From Bdellovibrionales bacterium (GTDB lineage: Bacteria; Pseudomonadota; Alphaproteobacteria; JAIXQD01), in the NCBI GenBank assembly GCA_050248995.1, contig JBFWRI010000003.1:28619-92618 (forward strand): 64,000 nt of DNA, given 5' to 3'. The notes below the pieces were generated by a model that saw nothing but the letters and a program-made list of their open reading frames with translations, was not told the DNA's origin and ran no database searches. The translations under genes were made by a program, and so were the position numbers. Positions 1,970 through 11,464 of this stretch are shown here, in pieces (position 1 is the first letter of the stretch; each line of letters begins with the position of its first letter).

Positions 1970-4765
1970 TCAGTGCGCCATCGCCCAGTTATCGGCGATC
2001 CCTGCTTCGCAAACCAACGGTACAGCAACAAGTGCGGGGTCAGCAACGCTTTCCATGACCTTTTTGGCCAGCGCCGCTGTCGCCTCGGCCTCGTCCGCCG
2101 GCGCTTCCAGCACCAGCTCGTCATGCACCTGTAAAATCATGCGGCCTTTCAATCCGACAGCACGCAACGCCGGCGGCAGTGCGATCATCGCCCGTTTCAT
2201 GATATCCGCCGCGGTGCCCTGCAGCGGTGCGTTGACGGCCTGCCGTTCGGCATACTGACGGCGGGCGGCATTCTTGTCGGCGATGCCCGGCACCCAGCAG
2301 CGGCGCCCATACAGCGTTTCCACATAGCCTTTGGCGCGCGCCTTATCTTTCTGCGCTTCCATAAATGTGCGCAATTCGGGGAAGCGGCCAAGATAACCGC
2401 CGATGAAGGCGTTGGCTTCGCCCGGCGAAATACCCAGCTGTTTTGCAAGCCCAAAGCCCGAGATGCCGTAGATGATGCCGAAGTTGATCGCCTTGGCGCT
2501 GCGGCGCTGTGCCGGTGTCACTTCGCTCAGCGGCACGCCCAGCACCTGGCTGGCTGTCAGCGCATGAATGTCGACACCGTCTTTAAACGCCTGCGCCAGC
2601 GCCTCGACGCCCGCCATCGACGCCGCCAGACGCAGTTCAATCTGCGAGTAATCAACGCTGATCAGCTTGCTGCCTTCTTCGGCCACGAAGGCGCGGCGAA
2701 TTTCGCGGCCGTCTTCGGTGCGGATTGGGATGTTCTGCAGGTTCGGATCGGATGATGACAAGCGGCCAGTTGATGTGATGGCCAGCGCGAACGACGTGTG
2801 CACGCGGCCGGTACGCGGGTTGATCTGTTCCTGCAAGGCTTCCGTGTAGGTGCTGCGCAGTTTCGAAACCCCGCGCCAGTCCAGCACTTTCTGTGCAATT
2901 TCATATTCGTCGGCCAACGGCTCCAGTATTTCGACGCCCGTGGCATACGCGCCGGTCTTGCTTTTAGTGCCGCCTGGCAACCCCATTGCGCCGAACAACA
3001 CGTCACCCAGCTGTTTAGGTGAGCCAACATTGAATTCCTGACCGGCCAGTTTATAAATTTCAGTCTCCAGCTCCGCCTGCTGCTTCGCAAAGCGCTGCGA
3101 CAGCCCCGCCAGCACGGCGGCATCAATCTTCACGCCCGCCGTTTCCATATCGGCCACCACGGCCACCAGCGGGCGCTCCATGCGCTCGTAAATCCGCGAG
3201 ATGCCTTCGCGCTGCATATTCCCCTTGATGGCCAGCCACAGGCGCAGCGTGAAGTCGGCATCTTCGGCGGCGTATTGCGTGGCTTTGTCCAGCGGCACAC
3301 GGTCGAAGGTGATCATATTCTTGCCCGTGCCGCAGACTTCGCTGAACGGAATCATCTTGTGGCCGAAGTAGCGCTCGGCCAATTCGTCAAGGCCATGACC
3401 ATGCAGCCCCGCACCCATCACATACGACAGCAGCATCGTATCGTCGTGCGGCGTTACATCAAAACCGTTGGCGCGCAAAACCTGCAAATCAAACTTCAGA
3501 TTATGCGCCACTTTCATGATGGCCGGATCGGTCAGCAGGGGATTCAGCGCGCTTATAACGTCTTTCAACGCCAGTTGCTGCGGCCTTTCGGCCAGCGCCA
3601 GCCCACCATCGCGGTCGATACCGTGGTTCAGCGGGATATAGCACGCATCGCCCGGCGCTACTGCCAGCGATATACCCACCAGCAGTGCTGTTGACGGTGT
3701 CAGACTATCGGTTTCCGTATCCAGCGCCAACGCCTGCACGTTCCTGATCTTTTCAACCCACTTGTGCAGCTGGCCGGTTGTTGTCACACATTCATAGTGT
3801 GCATCCATGCCTGTCAGCGCCATGGCGGATGCTACCGATACCGCTGCTGCGGCTGCAGGCTTGGCATTTTCGGCACGCTCGGCCGATGCTGGTGGCGGGA
3901 TATCGGCCCCCGACAACCCCATGCGCGTGATGATCGATTTGAAACCCTGCTGCTGCAAGAAAGCCGCCAGCGTCGTGTTATCCTTATTCACATTCAGGTC
4001 TTCAAGCGCAACCGGCAGCGGCACATCGACCTTCAGCGTCACAAGCTTTTTTGAAATGCGCGCTAGTTCGGCATTATCAATCAGCGTCTGGCGGCGCTTG
4101 GGCTGCTTGATTTCTTCCGCGCGCTGCAACAGTGTTTCCAGGTCGCCATAAATGCCGATCAGTTCGGCGGCCGTCTTCACACCAATGCCAGGCACGCCCG
4201 GCACGTTGTCGGCGGAATCGCCGGCCAGCGCCTGCACATCCACAACCTTTTCCGGCCCCACGCCGAATTTGTTCATCACGTCATCAAGTGCCAGTGTCTT
4301 GCCTTTCATCGGATCGAACAGCTCGATCCCGTCGTCCATCAACTGCATCAAGTCCTTGTCGCCGCTGACAATCACCACGTCTTCGCCGCGCGCCTTGGCC
4401 GCCAGCGCATAAGACGCCAGCAGATCATCGGCCTCGAAACCTTCCATTTCAATCGCCGGCAGGCCGAACGCGCGCGCTGCTTCTTTTACCAGCGCAAACT
4501 GCGGGATCAGGTCTTCCGGCGGCTCGGGACGATGCGCCTTGTATTCGGGGTAAATATCCATGCGGAAGGTTTTGCGCGCCGCATCGAAAATCACCGCCAT
4601 GTGCGTAGCGCCCAAATCTTTTTCCAGCTTTGCCAGCATATTGCAAAAGCCCATCACGGCACCAACTGGTGTGCCGTCAGCGCGCGTCAATGGCGGCAGT
4701 GCGTGATAGGCGCGGAAGATAAAACCCGAGCCATCAACCAGATAAAGTTTCTTCTTAGTGGCCAT
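1970..4765 (-). CDS. polA: DNA polymerase I
   Basis: 931 aa from MATKKKLYLVDGSGFIFRAYHALPPL (the ORF-track start 4837 is an upstream in-frame extension). 5'-3' exonuclease, 3'-5' exonuclease and polymerase regions are recognisable across the length. Ends DNWAMAH. Confidence 0.95.
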   Translation of the reverse strand: MATKKKLYLVDGSGFIFRAYHALPPLTRADGTPVGAVMGFCNMLAKLEKDLGATHMAVIFDAARKTFRMDIYPEYKAHRPEPPEDLIPQFALVKEAARAFGLPAIEMEGFEADDLLASYALAAKARGEDVVIVSGDKDLMQLMDDGIELFDPMKGKTLALDDVMNKFGVGPEKVVDVQALAGDSADNVPGVPGIGVKTAAELIGIYGDLETLLQRAEEIKQPKRRQTLIDNAELARISKKLVTLKVDVPLPVALEDLNVNKDNTTLAAFLQQQGFKSIITRMGLSGADIPPPASAERAENAKPAAAAAVSVASAMALTGMDAHYECVTTTGQLHKWVEKIRNVQALALDTETDSLTPSTALLVGISLAVAPGDACYIPLNHGIDRDGGLALAERPQQLALKDVISALNPLLTDPAIMKVAHNLKFDLQVLRANGFDVTPHDDTMLLSYVMGAGLHGHGLDELAERYFGHKMIPFSEVCGTGKNMITFDRVPLDKATQYAAEDADFTLRLWLAIKGNMQREGISRIYERMERPLVAVVADMETAGVKIDAAVLAGLSQRFAKQQAELETEIYKLAGQEFNVGSPKQLGDVLFGAMGLPGGTKSKTGAYATGVEILEPLADEYEIAQKVLDWRGVSKLRSTYTEALQEQINPRTGRVHTSFALAITSTGRLSSSDPNLQNIPIRTEDGREIRRAFVAEEGSKLISVDYSQIELRLAASMAGVEALAQAFKDGVDIHALTASQVLGVPLSEVTPAQRRSAKAINFGIIYGISGFGLAKQLGISPGEANAFIGGYLGRFPELRTFMEAQKDKARAKGYVETLYGRRCWVPGIADKNAARRQYAERQAVNAPLQGTAADIMKRAMIALPPALRAVGLKGRMILQVHDELVLEAPADEAEATAALAKKVMESVADPALVAVPLVCEAGIADNWAMAH

Positions 4766-4967
4766 CGTTATCGGCGTGCGGATCCAGCACAAAACGGCGG
4801 CCACAGTAACCGCAATCCACCGTGCCGGCATTGCCAATCGTCAGGTATGTCAACGGGTGGCCCAGTGCGCCGGTTGATGCGCCCGCGCCGCCATCGCAGC
4901 CAATCGTACGCTGGCTGACCGTGATAGTTTCCAAAGGTTCGGTTTCGGGTGCGGGATGCCGGATCAT
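4755..4967 (-). CDS. zf-CHCC family zinc-finger small protein
   Basis: 70 aa. Pattern C..GG...GHP.TYL.....G...CGYCGRRF matches the CHCC zinc-finger domain. Overlaps polA start by 11 nt. Confidence 0.55.
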   Translation of the reverse strand: MIRHPAPETEPLETITVSQRTIGCDGGAGASTGALGHPLTYLTIGNAGTVDCGYCGRRFVLDPHADNDGH

Positions 4968-5059
4968 GGCCTTAAATTAGCGAATTCCAAGGCAGATGCA
5001 ACACGCTGGATTTTGCGGTATTATGGCCCTATAACGTGCCCCATAGCATTAACTGGTAT

Positions 5060-5136
5060 GTTCCCGTAGCTCAACTGGATAGAGCGTTGCCCTCCGAAGG
5101 CAAAGGTTGGAGGTTCAAGTCCTCTCGGGAACGCCA
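5060..5136 (+). tRNA. tRNA-Arg (anticodon CCG)
   Basis: Cloverleaf folds by eye: acceptor GTTCCCG/CGGGAAC, D-stem GCTC/GAGC, anticodon stem TTGCC/GGCAA with loop CTCCGAA, T-arm GGAGG-TTCAAGT-CCTCT, 3' CCA encoded. Confidence 0.9.
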
Positions 5137-5154
5137 GACATCAAAAAAGAAGCC

Positions 5155-5979
5155 ATGGTCACAGTATATCCTCTCAAGTACGGGAAAATTCATCTCAACA
5201 GAGCTCCACGTGAGGAGAGTCGTTTTTACCTGCGCTTGAATCAAGTTATTAATGACATAAAAATGCTCCAGATAATTGGTTACGCTTGCACCGGCTATAC
5301 CCGGAAAGGAGATAAGGATCCTGTAGTACGACACGCCCAGGATGCAATGCTTATCTTTACTTGGAGAATACTTTGTGGGCGACTTTGGGAGGGCTATAAA
5401 CTTCTACGAGAACATGGACAGATAATTAACGCTGCCGACTTATCCGGCGAAGGCGAAACGCCAGAACAAGGAAAAGAATCGCTCAAAAAGGTTCACTCTT
5501 ACTTCAAGGGTAAAAGCCTCATTCAAAAAGTGCGTGATAAAATTGGCTTCCACAATATTGCAGATATTCAAGAAAGTGCCTTTGATTTAATTCCTGCAAC
5601 AGATGTTATGGTTGAGTATATTGGCGATATGCAAGGACATTTCTTTTTCGCCGGTGCTGAATTCCTAAATAGGGCTGCAATCACTGCGCTAACTGAGAAA
5701 CCGACTCTAGACGAGGCAATAAATGCTATAATGCATGATATGTTAATGGTATCCGGACTCTTTATCGATATTGGCGATCGCTACGCTGCATTTTTTTGTA
5801 AAACGTACTTAAAGAAGAAGCTAAAAAAGCCCCTCTCTCCCCATATTATAAATGGGGCACCAGAACTTTTGAATCAAGATTTGCGATTTTTTTGCGAACA
5901 TACAAAAAAGTCTAATAAGCCCGCGAGAATACAGCCATTACCGTTGCTGGCTTGCCGGTCAGCACGCAGGCGCCGCTGA
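5155..5979 (+). CDS. hypothetical protein in AT-rich islet adjacent to tRNA-Arg
   Basis: ORF starting MVTVYPLKYGK (the track start 5107 overlaps the tRNA). Markedly lower GC than flanks. No known motif. The 3' 68 nt overlap the proS stop region. Confidence 0.45.
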   Translation: MVTVYPLKYGKIHLNRAPREESRFYLRLNQVINDIKMLQIIGYACTGYTRKGDKDPVVRHAQDAMLIFTWRILCGRLWEGYKLLREHGQIINAADLSGEGETPEQGKESLKKVHSYFKGKSLIQKVRDKIGFHNIADIQESAFDLIPATDVMVEYIGDMQGHFFFAGAEFLNRAAITALTEKPTLDEAINAIMHDMLMVSGLFIDIGDRYAAFFCKTYLKKKLKKPLSPHIINGAPELLNQDLRFFCEHTKKSNKPARIQPLPLLACRSARRRR

Positions 5980-7432
5980 CACTTTTTTGCGCATCCGACG
6001 GGTAACAGCGAATGGTCACGCTCAGTTCCTTCAGCAAGCCTTCAACTGCCGCTTCATCGCCGCAGAACGGTGCCCGCACAAAGCCGATACCATCGCTGTA
6101 GTTCTTGTCTCCGCTGCCGCTGAAGTATTTCTTGAAAGCATCCAGCGTCGTGATGTCGGTGCGGGTGCGATCGCTGCGCAGCTTGGCCGCGGCATCGAAC
6201 AGGCGCTGCTGGTAAGCCGTCAGGTTGGCTTCCATGCCATTCGCCAGATCATCAATCGCAACAAACTCTTTCTTGCCCATCTGGTCACGCCAGTTGATGG
6301 CAACCGAGCGCTTTTCCAGGTCTTTCGGGCCGATTTCGCCGATCACAGGCACGCCCTTCTTGATCCAGCTCCAGCGCTTGTCGGCGCTGTTCATATCGCG
6401 CGTATCAACCTTCACGCGCACAGGCTTGCCGTCAAACTTCTGCTTACGAATGGCGGCTGCAACTTCTTCCGCATACTTCAACACAGCGTCGTTGTCGGCA
6501 CCTTCACGCAGGATAGGTACCAGCACAACCTGCTGGGGCGCAACCTTGGGCGGCAGGCGCAGGCCATCATCGTCGCCGTGCGTCATGATGATGCCGCCGA
6601 TCATGCGGGTTGAAACACCCCACGATGTTGTGTGCACAAACTCTTCGCGACCTTCCTTGCTTTGGAACTTGATATTTGCCGCCTTGGCGAAGTTCTGGCC
6701 CAGATAATGCGACGTACCGGCCTGCAGCGCCTTGCCATCCTGCATCATCGCTTCAATGGCAAATGTCTGCTCGGCGCCAGCGAAGCGCTCGTTCGGCGAC
6801 TTTTCACCCTTGATCACGGGCATCGCCAGCACGTTTTCAGCCACATCGGCATAGACATCCAGCATCTGCAGGGTTTCGCGCATCGCGTCTTCCTTGTCAG
6901 CATGCGCCGTATGGCCTTCCTGCCACAGGAATTCCGCTGTGCGCAGGAACATGCGGGTGCGCATTTCCCAGCGTACCACGTTGGCCCACTGGTTGATCAG
7001 CACGGGCAGGTCGCGATACGACTGGATCCAGTTCGCGAACGCTTCACCGATAATCGTTTCTGACGTCGGGCGCACAATCAAAGGCTCTTCCAGTTCGCCG
7101 TCGGGCTTCAGCTTACCGTCAGGACCTTTTACAAGACGGTGGTGCGTGACGATCGCCATTTCCTTGGCGAAGCCTTCAGCGTGTTCGGCTTCTTTCTGGA
7201 TAAGACTTAAGGGAATGAAAAGAGGGAAGTAACAGTTCTCGTGACCGGTCGCCTTGAAACGGTCATCCATTTCACGCACCAGCAGTTCCCAGATGCCATA
7301 GCCCCAGGGCTTGATGACCATACAGCCGCGCACGCCCGAATTCTCGGCCATGTCGGCGGCTTTAATAACCTGCTGGTACCATTCGGCATAATTTTCGGCC
7401 CGTGTAGGTGACACGGCGGATGAATTGCGCAT
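5912..7432 (-). CDS. proS: prolyl-tRNA synthetase (archaeal/eukaryote-like type, C-terminal Tyr)
   Basis: 506 aa. Class II aaRS motifs. N-terminal ...YAEWYQQVIKAADMAE... and C-terminal ...VFSRAY are typical of the editing-domain-less ProRS type. Confidence 0.9.
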   Translation of the reverse strand: MRNSSAVSPTRAENYAEWYQQVIKAADMAENSGVRGCMVIKPWGYGIWELLVREMDDRFKATGHENCYFPLFIPLSLIQKEAEHAEGFAKEMAIVTHHRLVKGPDGKLKPDGELEEPLIVRPTSETIIGEAFANWIQSYRDLPVLINQWANVVRWEMRTRMFLRTAEFLWQEGHTAHADKEDAMRETLQMLDVYADVAENVLAMPVIKGEKSPNERFAGAEQTFAIEAMMQDGKALQAGTSHYLGQNFAKAANIKFQSKEGREEFVHTTSWGVSTRMIGGIIMTHGDDDGLRLPPKVAPQQVVLVPILREGADNDAVLKYAEEVAAAIRKQKFDGKPVRVKVDTRDMNSADKRWSWIKKGVPVIGEIGPKDLEKRSVAINWRDQMGKKEFVAIDDLANGMEANLTAYQQRLFDAAAKLRSDRTRTDITTLDAFKKYFSGSGDKNYSDGIGFVRAPFCGDEAAVEGLLKELSVTIRCYPSDAQKSVSGACVLTGKPATVMAVFSRAY

Positions 7433-7630: not shown

Positions 7631-8659
7631 ATGATCCCCGATACGCCCAAAATTCTATTTTGCCTGACCGACGCTACCACCAAGGACGGGTTGCACTTTG
7701 AAGCCATGAACACGGCGTTGGCGGCGAAGGGCTTTATTTTTGCCGGCGAAGGCACAACCACCACCGGCAAGGTGCTGTTGGTCTACTTCACGTACGAAAT
7801 CGCGCCGAAGGAAAACATATTCAGCCGGCGCTATCATCTGCATGCGGCATTGCTCCCCCTCAAGCGCGCGCAAACGCTGGCGGCCGACGGCAGCGCTTTC
7901 GCGGCACTTGTCAGCAAGGCCAAACAGGGCGACCGCGACCTGAGACTGCGGCCCGGCGACGAATTTATTGCCGACCTCTCCAGCAACCGCGCGCGCTCGT
8001 CTGTCTGGGTTATCCGGCGCAACGGGCAGAAGCTGTTACGCAAGGCCTTCAATGCCGGCAGCATAGCATTTGTCGAACGCGAAGTTCTGGCCCGCAGCAT
8101 CATCAAGGATACACGCATGGCACCTATCGTCTTGCGCGAGGGGAATGTGCTGTACATGCCATTCTACCAGACAGGCTATGTCTGGCGCGAGGGCCTGCTG
8201 AACTTTTACCCGCGCCCGAAAGCCGCGCAGATCTTTGATTTTCTCGGCGCGATCAACCGCCAGGGCTATTCAATGATCGATATCAACCCCTCAGCCTTTC
8301 TGTGGGATGAAACTGGCGCTTTAAGGGTCGTTGACTTTGAGTTCTTCACGCAAACCCGCGTTGCCGACGATCTGAGAAAAAGCGTCGATTTCATCGGCGA
8401 TGTCGGCCACCTGCCAGCGCCGGCCAAAAATGGTTACAAACGCTACTGGTATGACCCGCTGGGCGGGCCATGGCCCCGTATTATGGAATATAACAAGGGC
8501 ACACGGCTTGTTGTTAAAGCCCTGCACCTGCTGTTTTACCGTTTGCCAAGGCGCGCGGCCAAGACTCTGGATCGCGCCCGCAAATCGGCGCTTACTTATC
8601 TCGCTGCTGCACGCGACCTGAAAGCGGGCGGGCTAAAAGACGGGTACTTTAATATATGA
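7631..8659 (+). CDS. hypothetical protein with atypical protein-kinase-like (Kdo/RIO-kinase-like) fold
   Basis: 342 aa. Segment SMIDINPSAFLWDETGALRVVDFEF resembles the catalytic loop plus the DFx metal-binding motif of Kdo/RIO-type kinases, with the catalytic His replaced by Met. ATGA overlap with the next gene. Confidence 0.55.
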   Translation: MIPDTPKILFCLTDATTKDGLHFEAMNTALAAKGFIFAGEGTTTTGKVLLVYFTYEIAPKENIFSRRYHLHAALLPLKRAQTLAADGSAFAALVSKAKQGDRDLRLRPGDEFIADLSSNRARSSVWVIRRNGQKLLRKAFNAGSIAFVEREVLARSIIKDTRMAPIVLREGNVLYMPFYQTGYVWREGLLNFYPRPKAAQIFDFLGAINRQGYSMIDINPSAFLWDETGALRVVDFEFFTQTRVADDLRKSVDFIGDVGHLPAPAKNGYKRYWYDPLGGPWPRIMEYNKGTRLVVKALHLLFYRLPRRAAKTLDRARKSALTYLAAARDLKAGGLKDGYFNI

Positions 8660-10107
8660 CACCTGAAACTTTTCTTCGCGATCGCCTTGTACTGCTGGCA
8701 GGCACACCCGCCGCCACAGCCACCGATGTGCGCAACCATGCGCCGCGCGACGTGCTGGAGATGAATGTCAAAAAATCATCGCAGGTCGGCGCCACCAACT
8801 GCGACGCTGCTGTTTTATGCGGAAAAGCCGGCGCTGCCCTGCGTTCGCGCCGGTTTATCGACACCTTTATATATATAGCTCTGCCGTGGGGTTCCGGCTG
8901 GCTGGCCGCCCTGCCCGGCCTGTTGCGTTACGCCCTGCGCGGCGCCCTTAAATATCGCGGTACAATCACGCTGGCCGGTTTTACCCTGCCGGTACCGGTG
9001 TTCGAGAACAAGCGCACGGGTTCGCGCAAGCGTGCCCGTGTTTATGCGCCCAACTGGCCCGCGCTGAAAATCATGCAGATGCTGAACGACACCGACTGCA
9101 TTGCCCTGCGCTGGATTGAAAGCATCGAAGACGGTTCACACACGGGCGATATCGACATTCTGGCCGGCAGCGGCGACTTGCAAACCATCCAGCAGCGTTT
9201 TCGCACGCACGCCGGCACACAGGCAATCGACCTTTATAGTTCGGATGCCAGCGGCGGCTGCGTGTTCAAGGATGTCGCCTACTTCCCGCCCTTCATGGCG
9301 CGGCAGATGCTGGCCACTGCCGTCACGCGGCCCAGCGGCATCAAGGTTGCGAACGACGAATGGCGCTTTGTGTCGTTCTGCTATCATCTGTTGTTCCATA
9401 AATCCGAACAGCTGGCGATCGGTGCCGAGGAATTGACCGAGAAAAGTTTTTCACGCCCTGATTACGTGCGCGAACTGCAAAGGCTGGCAGCCGCAGCCGG
9501 CCAGCCTGCCCCACGCAGCATCACCGACATCGAAAACCTGCTGAAAGCCCGCAACGTATTCCCTGAAATCGACACCATCGGCTTCCTGAGCACCGGCAAC
9601 AGGTTCCTGCAGCATCGCTATTATAATAAAAGCGGCGATTACATGCCGGGTCTGACGGTTTTTCTGGCCCGCGACTTCGGGCTTGAAGGCGATATCACCA
9701 CCGATATCCGCCGCCAGATTGAAAGTGCCGGGTTCAGCATCCTGCATGAACGCCCGGTTGACCCGAACACGCAGCACGCTGTCGTGCACGCCATCCGTGG
9801 CGGCAACTGGTCGGATAGCGTCGCGCCCGGCGGTATCGCACTGCCGCTGCACGCCTATGTTGCATATGACGCGCAGCCGCTGGCAATCAAAGGCGGCGAC
9901 GCCAAGCGTTACCCGCGTCTTGATAACGCGCGTACGCTTTTAAAGAAATCGGTGCGCGAGGGTTACGCCGCACAGGCCGGTGTGCGCAAGGTCAACATCC
10001 TGCATGCCAGCGATAACACTGCCGAAGCCGTCGGCTATGTTGCGGCGCTGGGCGTCGGTGAAATCCCGGCGGTAAAGGAAATCCTTACCCGTTTGCGCAA
10101 GACCTAG
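8656..10107 (+). CDS. hypothetical protein (483 aa), translationally coupled to upstream kinase-like gene
   Basis: Start overlaps the upstream stop (ATGA). No confident domain. GSHTGDIDIL is reminiscent of nucleotidyltransferase motifs but too short to assign. Confidence 0.5.
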   Translation: MTPETFLRDRLVLLAGTPAATATDVRNHAPRDVLEMNVKKSSQVGATNCDAAVLCGKAGAALRSRRFIDTFIYIALPWGSGWLAALPGLLRYALRGALKYRGTITLAGFTLPVPVFENKRTGSRKRARVYAPNWPALKIMQMLNDTDCIALRWIESIEDGSHTGDIDILAGSGDLQTIQQRFRTHAGTQAIDLYSSDASGGCVFKDVAYFPPFMARQMLATAVTRPSGIKVANDEWRFVSFCYHLLFHKSEQLAIGAEELTEKSFSRPDYVRELQRLAAAAGQPAPRSITDIENLLKARNVFPEIDTIGFLSTGNRFLQHRYYNKSGDYMPGLTVFLARDFGLEGDITTDIRRQIESAGFSILHERPVDPNTQHAVVHAIRGGNWSDSVAPGGIALPLHAYVAYDAQPLAIKGGDAKRYPRLDNARTLLKKSVREGYAAQAGVRKVNILHASDNTAEAVGYVAALGVGEIPAVKEILTRLRKT

Positions 10108-10171: not shown

Positions 10172-11464
10172 ATGTCTCGTGTTGCGTGGCTTTTTCTTGA
10201 TTTGAATTCCTTCTTCGCATCATGCGAACAGCAGGACGATCCCACCTTGCGCGGCAAGCCCGTTGCCGTCGTCCCCTCGCTGACCGACACCACCAGCGTC
10301 ATCGCCGCCAGTTATGCCGCCAAGGCCTTCGGCATCCGCACCGGCACGCGTGTGCGCGAAGCTAAACAGATGTGCCCCGGCCTTATCCTGCGCACCGGGA
10401 ATCACAAACGCTATGTGCAGCACCACAACGCCGTGAAGCGGGCCATTGAAGACGTGCTGCCGATCGAAATGGTGTGCTCGGTTGATGAATTCGCCTGCCG
10501 CCTGATGGGTGACGAGTGTGAGGTGCGCGAAGCGATTGCACTGGCCGAATGCGTCAAGCAATCCATCCGCCAGAAGGCCGGCGAAGCGCTCACCTGCTCA
10601 ATCGGCCTTGCCCCCAATCGCTTTCTTGGCAAGGTCGCTGCCGACATGCAGAAGCCTGACGGCCTGACCGTTATCAGCCTCGATGATATTCCCGGCAAGT
10701 TGCTACGCCTTAAACTGCAGGATTTCCCCGGTATCGGCCCGCGCATGGCGCAACGCCTTATCAACCAGGGCGTCACCACGGTTGAACAGCTCTATGCGGC
10801 CGATATCCCAACCATGCGTGCGCTGTGGGGCGGCATCGAAGGCGAGAAGTTTTACCAGAAACTGCGAGGTGAAGACCCGTTCTACCGCGCAACCGAAACC
10901 GGCAGCTTCAGCCACCAGCACGTTTTAGAGCCGAAGTTCCGCAGCATGGACGGTGTATCCGCTTATGCCCAGCACCTGCTGCTGAAACTGGCCGAACGCC
11001 TGCGCGACCAGCAATATCTGAGCCGTCGCTTAAGTCTTGTCATACGCTACGCCGGCACCTTCCAGCGTGCGCACGCTGAAACGTCGTTCCATGAAACCGC
11101 TGACAGCCTGACATTACTGCGTGCGCTGAAAGACCTGCTGGCACAAATGCCGCGCGGCAAACCTTTCAAGGTGGCCGTCACGGTCAGCGATCTTATTCCT
11201 GCGGCGCGCCGCCAGCTGGACCTGTTCACCGACGAACAGGAAAGCGAACTTTCAACCGCGCTGGACGACATCAACCAGAAGTACGGCCGCGGCACGCTGT
11301 ACTTCGGTGCCACGCAGGCGCTGCAAAAGCACCTGCATGCGCGTATCGCCTTCCAGCGGGTGCCGGATGAACAGGAGTTCGACGCGCGCGACACCACAGA
11401 ACGGGAATTCCAGAAGCACCTGAACCGTATCAGTGCCATTGAAGACCGCCGACGTGGCGGCTAA
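10172..11464 (+). CDS. Y-family DNA polymerase, UmuC-like (translesion synthesis)
   Basis: N-terminus FLDLNSFFASCEQ...GKPVAV matches UmuC ALCDVNAFYASCE...GKPVVV, and SVDEF matches SIDEAF. Catalytic D, D/N and E are present. 430 aa. No umuD-like gene nearby. Confidence 0.8.
   Translation: MSRVAWLFLDLNSFFASCEQQDDPTLRGKPVAVVPSLTDTTSVIAASYAAKAFGIRTGTRVREAKQMCPGLILRTGNHKRYVQHHNAVKRAIEDVLPIEMVCSVDEFACRLMGDECEVREAIALAECVKQSIRQKAGEALTCSIGLAPNRFLGKVAADMQKPDGLTVISLDDIPGKLLRLKLQDFPGIGPRMAQRLINQGVTTVEQLYAADIPTMRALWGGIEGEKFYQKLRGEDPFYRATETGSFSHQHVLEPKFRSMDGVSAYAQHLLLKLAERLRDQQYLSRRLSLVIRYAGTFQRAHAETSFHETADSLTLLRALKDLLAQMPRGKPFKVAVTVSDLIPAARRQLDLFTDEQESELSTALDDINQKYGRGTLYFGATQALQKHLHARIAFQRVPDEQEFDARDTTEREFQKHLNRISAIEDRRRGG

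Follow-up and report, generated by a model that had tools for sequence, protein, structure and literature searches.

How does a gene so much poorer in GC than its neighbours come to stand between a tRNA gene and the gene of a prolyl-tRNA ligase, and what might its product do there? The question is raised by a stretch of 64,000 nucleotides (contig JBFWRI010000003.1 of assembly GCA_050248995.1, positions 28,619 to 92,618; hereafter the window, numbered from its first letter), in which the space between a tRNA-Arg(CCG) gene and proS is filled by AT-rich DNA carrying one open reading frame (ORF). Taken as a whole, the locus is best explained, in our opinion and with some reserve, as a single-gene islet encoding a protein of the HEPN superfamily, likely an RNase of the toxin or abortive-infection type. 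Islets and HEPN proteins are both known kinds, and the new part is an unannotated protein family. The features on which the argument turns are the following:

5060-5136, plus strand: tRNA-Arg gene (anticodon CCG; ARAGORN, Rfam tRNA model 67.7 bits), intact, with 3' CCA; left border of the islet
5137-5911, no strand: AT-rich foreign segment (the islet), 775 nt, the whole space from the tRNA 3' end to the proS stop codon
5155-5979, plus strand: ORF of 274 aa and stop; family part, residues 1 to ~252 (5155-5910)
5911-5976, plus strand: tail of the ORF (residues 253-274), translated from the antisense strand of proS
5912-5979, convergent genes: 68-nt overlap of the ORF tail with the 3' coding end of proS
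5912-5914, minus strand: proS stop codon; right border of the islet
5912-7432, minus strand: proS, 506 aa (Pfam PF00587 tRNA-synt_2b, PF03129 HGTP_anticodon and PF09180 ProRS-C_1)

A foreign segment between tRNA-Arg and proS

The islet is foreign in composition. All segments of 775 nt average 0.565 in GC content (sd 0.033) and the islet has 0.410, which places it at z = -4.7 and makes it the unique GC minimum of the 64 kb, as expected from the initial annotation, which had described the interval between tRNA-Arg(CCG) and proS as much lower in GC than its surroundings. At third codon positions (GC3) the ORF has 0.377, versus 0.694 in proS, 0.702 in polA and 0.693 in the next downstream gene, the lowest value among 51 long stop-free segments (median 0.654); within the ORF, the family part has 0.377 and the tail 0.59. 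A chimera of metagenome assembly, with AT-rich DNA of another organism joined into the contig, could be read from the abrupt GC change at both borders and from the source, which is a metagenome-assembled genome (MAG). Nevertheless, the Logan assembly of run SRR27751816 (L081, 1651 nt) is identical to the window over 5078-6728, spanning both junctions, and because this independent assembly reproduces them exactly, the junctions are not an assembly artefact. Moreover, the ORF is continuous across the right junction, and unrelated assemblies show the same picture of a single gene of low GC, all of which makes a chimera extremely improbable and has led us to reject it.

The gene is also absent from the close relatives with which the locus could be compared. 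In the closest of them (P0161, ProS 80% identical, 340-kb contig), the gene map gives the order proS, a gap of 233 nt, zf-CHCC and polA. The window has the same order of proS, zf-CHCC and polA, with an interval of 944 nt (4968-5911) from proS to zf-CHCC. The 233-nt gap would fit the leader and tRNA of the window (169 nt) plus ~64 nt more, and is too small for a gene of 250 aa. The second relative (L095), a 2.3-kb metagenome contig found by a clade-specific degenerate probe built on ProS, has a tRNA-Arg(CCG) convergent with the 3' end of proS, 1.06 kb between the two, and a different gene of 221 aa inside. There, the slot (320-1378) comprises, in this order, ~340 nt of AT-rich DNA, ORF 664-1329 and, ahead of proS, a GC-rich hairpin terminator; that ORF is GC-rich, its product is rich in Ala and Gln, with a lipoprotein-like signal (…FLVAC…), and it has no Pfam match. 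Pairwise alignment with the window places the borders exactly: similarity runs through the tRNA (~95% identical), is lost right after the CCA and is back at the proS stop codon. Hence, three states of the same slot are found in one clade, namely a 233-nt gap (P0161), a different 221-aa gene (L095) and the HEPN-like gene (window), which together with the low GC bears out the earlier view of a remnant islet with a single cargo gene 3' of the tRNA. In the window, foreign DNA occupies the slot completely, and neither a spacer nor a terminator is found there between the ORF and proS, versus the 49-nt spacer with its GC-rich hairpin in L095.

Two details of the tRNA deserve mention. Three substitutions distinguish the tRNAs of the window and L095, all in the T-loop, and would be compatible with a past crossover in the 3' part of the tRNA, the sample being far too small for an argument. 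L095 has two copies of the first 18 nt of tRNA-Arg (GTTCCCGTAGCTCAATGG), at 162-179 and 244-261 (82 nt apart); the first, partial copy stands where the tRNA would start relative to the conserved promoter-like block upstream, with the complete tRNA after it. This repeated 5' end resembles a partial duplication or an att-like scar, and the window has no such copy.

At greater distance, the comparison loses its footing. Synteny is already lost in ProS relatives at 74%, 71% and 68% identity, and in a GTDB scan (ProS identity <=62%) a tRNA-Arg beside proS was found in none of the 30 relatives scanned for tRNAs. As for the relative at 74% (L096), a 69-aa ORF at 1619-1828 directly follows proS and has a weak HGTP_anticodon match, resembling the C-terminal remnant of another prolyl-tRNA synthetase; next comes a convergent gene, AT-rich and of no assigned function, and there is no tRNA-Arg.

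Could the gene instead be ancestral at this locus, lost in the sampled relatives and low in GC for some cause other than foreign origin? The close relatives compared are two, P0161 by its gene map alone, and no att sites or integrase were found, which would suit such a history. Against it speak a GC3 of 0.38 versus ~0.70 in all neighbours, the different gene that L095 has in the same slot, and the distribution of the protein family to which the product belongs (see below): it is patchy, it was found in none of 80 more distant proS neighbourhoods (the same GTDB scan, ProS identity <=62%), its nearest homolog is 47% identical and lies between unrelated genes, and its genes are lower in GC than their flanks in 8 of 10 other loci. 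We therefore regard an ancestral gene as very improbable. The islet reading stands because the gene is not present here, with similar composition, in all relatives, and we are highly confident that the islet is horizontally acquired DNA reduced to one gene; its slot differs from one close relative to another.

The route of arrival is another matter. The initial annotation had seen no integrase or obvious att repeat, which holds: no integrase or other mobility gene is encoded within ~10 kb, and copies of the tRNA ends (last 17 or 25 nt, first 19 nt) are absent from the rest of the 64 kb at <=3 mismatches, including the degenerate repeat of the tRNA 3' end that it had suggested looking for. A search of the islet for att repeats, tandem repeats, Rfam families and terminators returned nothing besides the tRNA, and the local repeats in the region are short and all within the ORF. 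Integration may have used the tRNA as an att site.

Within ~10 kb, the neighbours are polA, zf-CHCC, proS (whose product is of the archaeal/eukaryote-like prolyl-tRNA ligase type), two unknowns, a Y-family polymerase and HlyD/ABC transporters. The two unknowns lie past proS on the plus strand (7631-8659, 342 aa, and 8656-10107, 483 aa), overlap by 4 nt and have zero Pfam matches; the Y-family DNA polymerase gene follows them at 10172-11464. The source MAG is labelled 'Bdellovibrionales bacterium' and the ProS relatives of named source are MAGs of Alphaproteobacteria or Pseudomonadota; the label may be unreliable.

An unnamed protein family and its HEPN-type signature

The gene had initially been called an orphan, and a word-indexed search of 5.8 billion proteins gives that impression, its sole match being the protein itself (a 'hypothetical protein' of a 'Bdellovibrionales bacterium' MAG); with the family alignment as query, it returned at least two proteins. 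This did not survive an exhaustive HMMER search of 1.84 billion cluster representatives, with 400 matches at E <= 1e-3 and 72 at E <= 1e-10, i.e., a family of at least 400 clusters (50% identity). The apparent orphan status arises because the word-indexed search misses relatives that the exhaustive profile search finds, and the locus is an example of how such a search makes a gene with hundreds of relatives look orphan. The matches are mostly of 240-275 aa (median 253), the nearest homolog (P0002) having 255 aa. The ORF can be listed as 5107-5979, from a TTG within the tRNA, and its first ATG is at 5155, leaving 275 codons including the stop; since the alignments with homologs begin at residue 1-2 of the protein read from this ATG, the true start is ATG 5155. 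At the other end, residue 253 is the first codon touching proS DNA, and because no homolog aligns past residue 255, the last 22 residues fall outside the family. That the frame enters the convergent proS by 68 nt, as first described, is thus true of the ORF (5912-5979), with a tail that is not part of the conserved protein.

The family is widespread, unnamed, of ~253 aa and without a curated model in Pfam, NCBIfam, PADLOC or PHROGs. Searched alone against these four libraries, the window protein gave nothing useful; the family members gave nothing significant there, apart from singleton noise in NCBIfam and PHROGs for one of the two family alignments (A1, 61 sequences; A2, 74 sequences; mean column identity 21-28%), and the family profiles gave noise only against PDB sequences. 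Below threshold, hmmscan matched single members to HEPN_AbiU2 (2 of 61) and Ribonuc_2-5A (2 of 74). Public names of members are 'hypothetical protein' only, save one evidently mistaken JGI label. Among mobile replicons, tblastn found no match for three family members in 72,556 plasmids nor for the window protein in 50,697 phage records, and a hand-made degenerate motif probe of IMG/VR returned 10 loci, nine of them chance matches and one weak.

Where, then, are the family genes found? Eight other members were examined in their contigs. The gene of P0009 (L087) is a near-perfect parallel to the window locus, a lone gene of 32.5% GC in a ~56% GC genome, flanked by ccmC and an SDR gene, with 9 nt to the next gene and no tRNA nearby. 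That of P0002 starts 8 nt after a methyltransferase gene and ends 13 nt before a convergent gene (GC 44.5% versus 57.6% in the flanks), and that of P0003 lies downstream of a PfkB kinase gene. Others are found among mobile or defence-related genes: P0008 after an SNase gene, in an element with an rve integrase and a primase; P0067 near a Schlafen/AlbA_2 gene; and P0004 (L092/L093) in a fragment of a conjugative element with a TrwC relaxase, AAA_15/21, GmrSD_N and a Tn3 transposase fragment. The P0004 island also encodes a 346-aa unknown and, 22 nt upstream of the family member, a 570-aa KAP/AAA_16/NB-ARC-like NTPase; NTPase and HEPN-like protein might work together there, as a two-gene system of that lineage. 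No conserved upstream or downstream partner was found among the homolog loci examined, where methyltransferase, PfkB, SNase and unknowns stand upstream. The overall picture suggests a solo, horizontally moving gene, sometimes residing in defence or mobile islands.

The initial annotation had found no recognisable motif in the protein. Its relatives alter that verdict, because a HEPN-type R-[NDH]-x4-H signature runs across the 134 family members over which residue conservation was counted:

Residue N33, codon 5251-5253, plus strand: polar position of helix 1, all but invariant, with N in 130 of 134
Residue E79, codon 5389-5391, plus strand: conserved acidic position of helix 56-86, the second long one, with E in 132 of 134
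Residues R127-D-K-I-G-F-H133, codons 5533-5553, plus strand: predicted HEPN Rx4-6H motif, R127 in 134 of 134 and H133 in 133 of 134
Residue 128: D in the window protein; N in 92, D in 16 and H in 10 members, 118 of 134 in all

The family consensus of the motif is R-N-K-x-A-F-H, of which the window protein has the variant R-D-K-I-G-F-H, and all the near-invariant residues (N33, E79, R127 and H133) are retained in it.

Structure prediction leads to the same place. Whereas the single-sequence AlphaFold model was useless (pLDDT 38), AlphaFold2 with alignment A1 gave a confident HEPN-like fold (pLDDT 90.7, pTM 0.86), again unlike what the absence of a motif had suggested; residues 1-249 are confident, and the C-terminal end that includes the tail (250-274, pLDDT 56-64) is the sole low-confidence part. 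In the model, helices 19-50 and 56-86 form a long hairpin, E79 lying in the latter helix; an insert (87-121) comes next, and then helix 122-131, near whose end R127 lies; H133 falls in the loop 132-135, and helix 136-145 and more C-terminal helices complete the chain. The predicted core is thus an up-down bundle of four helices, the second and third being separated by an insert, and HEPN structures are its top fold matches.

How well does this agree with the superfamily as it has been defined (Anantharaman et al. 2013, PMC3710099)? Four of the five sequence and structure criteria that could be assessed are present. The Rx4-6H motif is there (R127-x5-H133); the residue after R, 'typically polar (mostly N, D or H)' in HEPN motifs, is D128; and the R near a helix end and the H in the following loop are found in the predicted structure. 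Inserts between helices 2 and 3 are common in HEPN proteins. Profile-profile similarity (HHpred) to recognised HEPN families stood at 75-98% in the defining study. The second conserved acidic residue that many HEPN families have in helix 2 lies close to the Rx4-6H site, typically within Ex3[KR]; in this family, position 83 is hydrophobic, leaving no Ex3[KR] after E79, and [RK]76-x2-E79 is conserved instead. Foldseek searches of the model against PDB and BFVD gave no significant match. Another reading would be a helical protein outside the superfamily, with a conserved polar site in a regulatory, scaffolding or ligand-binding four-helix bundle, in which the Rx5H arrangement would be convergent, and this we judge unlikely. 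Membership in the HEPN superfamily is what we consider probable.

Expression, the C-terminal end and a possible role

If the islet brought no promoter with it, what would drive the gene? The ATG lies 18 nt past the 3' end of the tRNA, and neither a promoter-like site nor a stable hairpin was found in between. Upstream of the tRNA there is a block that recurs in L095 (TGGATT, 17 nt, TATAAA):

5007-5035, plus strand: putative promoter of tRNA-Arg, TGGATT (5007-5012), 17-nt spacer, TATAAC (5030-5035), conserved with L095

A generic consensus promoter scan did not call this block, because only 8 of 12 positions match the consensus, and its role as the tRNA-Arg promoter is put forward from its sequence and conservation. 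Co-transcription of tRNA-Arg and the ORF is proposed because the 18-nt leader has neither promoter nor hairpin and the promoter block of the tRNA is conserved; the gene would then probably be transcribed from the tRNA-Arg promoter, its message being freed by tRNA 3' processing. The sole consensus promoter-like site in 4700-6300 is on the minus strand (5845-5873; TTCAAA, 17 nt, TATAAT, 10 of 12), antisense into the ORF, and is probably there by chance since such sites are no commoner than in shuffled sequence.

The C-terminal end is likewise unusual. The ORF lacks a stop codon of its own or has it out of frame, so that translation continues for 22 codons into the antisense DNA of proS. At the very junction of islet and proS, the classic -1 slippery heptamer A_AAA_AAG stands in the zero frame of the ORF (T250-K251-K252, 5904-5915), after which the -1 frame reads GTC TAA. 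A -1 shift, or a change from A6 to A7, would give a protein of 253 aa, the family median, ending 4 nt into proS and not 68. A second in-frame A_AAA_AAG occurs at 5823-5829, and because of it the one at the junction may be mere Lys-Lys codons in AT-rich DNA. Beyond the junction, within the coding sequence of proS, the plus strand has a terminator-like hairpin (5958-5988; GTCAGC, 11-nt loop, GCTGAC, AC, TTTTTT), in whose 3' arm the TGA stop of the ORF lies (5977-5979). At its T-run, proS is 6 nt (two codons) longer by insertion than in L095. With a loop of more than 8 nt, the hairpin escaped the consensus scan, and folding of the wider region gives no significant z-score.

These features bear on whether the islet is a decaying remnant, which would have lost promoter and stop with the deletion of flanking island DNA and be silent or on its way to a pseudogene. 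The 18-nt leader with no promoter between tRNA and ATG, the native stop that is not in frame, the 22-aa tail of proS-antisense origin and low model confidence, and the convergent transcription of proS, which would run antisense to the gene, are all in keeping with decay. Nonetheless, the frame is intact across the full length of the family, N33, E79, R127 and H133 are all kept, the AlphaFold2 model is confident for residues 1-249, and co-transcription from the conserved tRNA promoter is plausible. Decay thus seems quite improbable to us.

What could that gene do? Bacteria employ HEPN RNases as toxins and as suicide switches against phages. HEPN proteins that keep Rx4-6H are metal-independent RNases leaving 2',3'-cyclic phosphate ends, their activity depending on the R and H of the motif (PMC3710099), and two precedents are close at hand. 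HepS, encoded by prophage Gifsy-1, works without a partner gene; it stays inactive until a tail-tip protein of the phage activates it, and then cleaves the anticodon loops of tRNAs (PMC13043305). ApeA, which is activated by deoxydinucleotides, cuts tRNA anticodon loops as well (bioRxiv 10.64898/2026.01.26.701840). Protection against T4 and T7 has been reported for a protein from an integron cassette that contains a HEPN AbiU2 domain (bioRxiv 10.64898/2026.03.17.712381). It is from this knowledge of HEPN enzymes and these precedents that a toxin or abortive-infection effector is proposed here. By analogy, the protein would be a metal-independent RNase whose active site is formed by dimerisation, it would be inactive by default, and it would act as a solo HEPN effector, as a toxin or in abortive infection. 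On these grounds a role in defence or as a toxin is plausible, although we hold it only tentatively.

A bolder proposal would join all these elements. The family would be an undescribed group of solo HEPN RNases (~253 aa, Rx5H, at least 400 clusters), each of which could serve by itself in abortive infection or addiction and spread as a minimal one-gene insertion without mobility genes of its own. At this locus it would be wired to a tRNA promoter, with toxin expression coupled to the transcription and processing of tRNA-Arg, and A_AAA_AAG would possibly give two C-terminal isoforms. As a whole, this we find rather doubtful. Were it true, a further solo HEPN family would extend the catalogue of defence genes with one that is abundant in metagenomes yet invisible to curated domain and defence libraries. 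HepS and ApeA are recent examples of single HEPN proteins that suffice as anti-phage systems, detecting the infection and cleaving tRNAs, and the family would be a tractable one-gene test case. The islet by itself is an ordinary kind of feature; what the locus does show is a tRNA-flanking slot with its three occupancy states in one clade and no trace of integration machinery.

Likeness to known systems

By its position, the islet resembles tRNA-adjacent islands, since it likewise starts at the 3' end of a tRNA, in a slot of variable occupancy, and is of anomalous composition. It differs from integrase-mediated tRNA islands in having no integrase and no direct repeat of the tRNA end (attL/attR), and in consisting of 775 nt and one gene only. 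An integron cassette was considered too and rejected, as there is no attC, no convincing inverted repeat, no integrase nearby and no room downstream, where the ORF runs into proS; the homolog of L087, put to the same comparison, also has a mere 9 nt before the next gene. At the protein level, the HEPN protein of an integron cassette from Vibrio paracholerae (PDB 3jrt, Vpc_cass2; PMC3710099) shares 10% identity in structural alignment and has no sequence-level match. Compared with 3jrt, whose host belongs to the Gammaproteobacteria, the window family is ~90 residues longer and has extra C-terminal helices.

Two-gene systems were weighed as well. HEPN-MNT toxins (PDB 7ae2, 8xdj and 5yep) have ~130-140 aa and are always paired with a gene for an MNT antitoxin, whereas neither an MNT antitoxin nor a conserved neighbour was found in the window or in the relatives examined. 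Both sides of the ORF are taken at this locus, upstream by the tRNA at a distance of 18 nt and downstream by the overlapping proS, so that a partner gene has no room. With neither a partner nor a conserved neighbour, toxin-antitoxin systems of two genes, HEPN-MNT or other, were rejected.

Further parallels are the HEPN proteins that stand alone. HepS ('HEPN Solo', STM14_3211, Gifsy-1; Sargen et al. 2026, PMC13043305), compared here by its description, has Rx4H (R100-H105) where the family has Rx5H, and is borne by a prophage, unlike the window family, which was not found in the phage collections (none of the 50,697 records and at most the one weak match in IMG/VR). The LT2 Gifsy-1 record contains no ORF with R100-x4-H105. 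AbiU2 (PF18734 HEPN_AbiU2) and other lactococcal Abi proteins are HEPN proteins of abortive infection that likewise stand alone and are carried by mobile DNA. Two family members match the AbiU2 model weakly (best E 0.018), far below the Pfam threshold, and the window protein does not match it at E <= 10; with the gathering threshold not reached, membership in Pfam HEPN_AbiU2 was rejected. Put together, these likenesses suggest a feature that would work like a solo HEPN Abi protein and sit like a tRNA-flanking islet.

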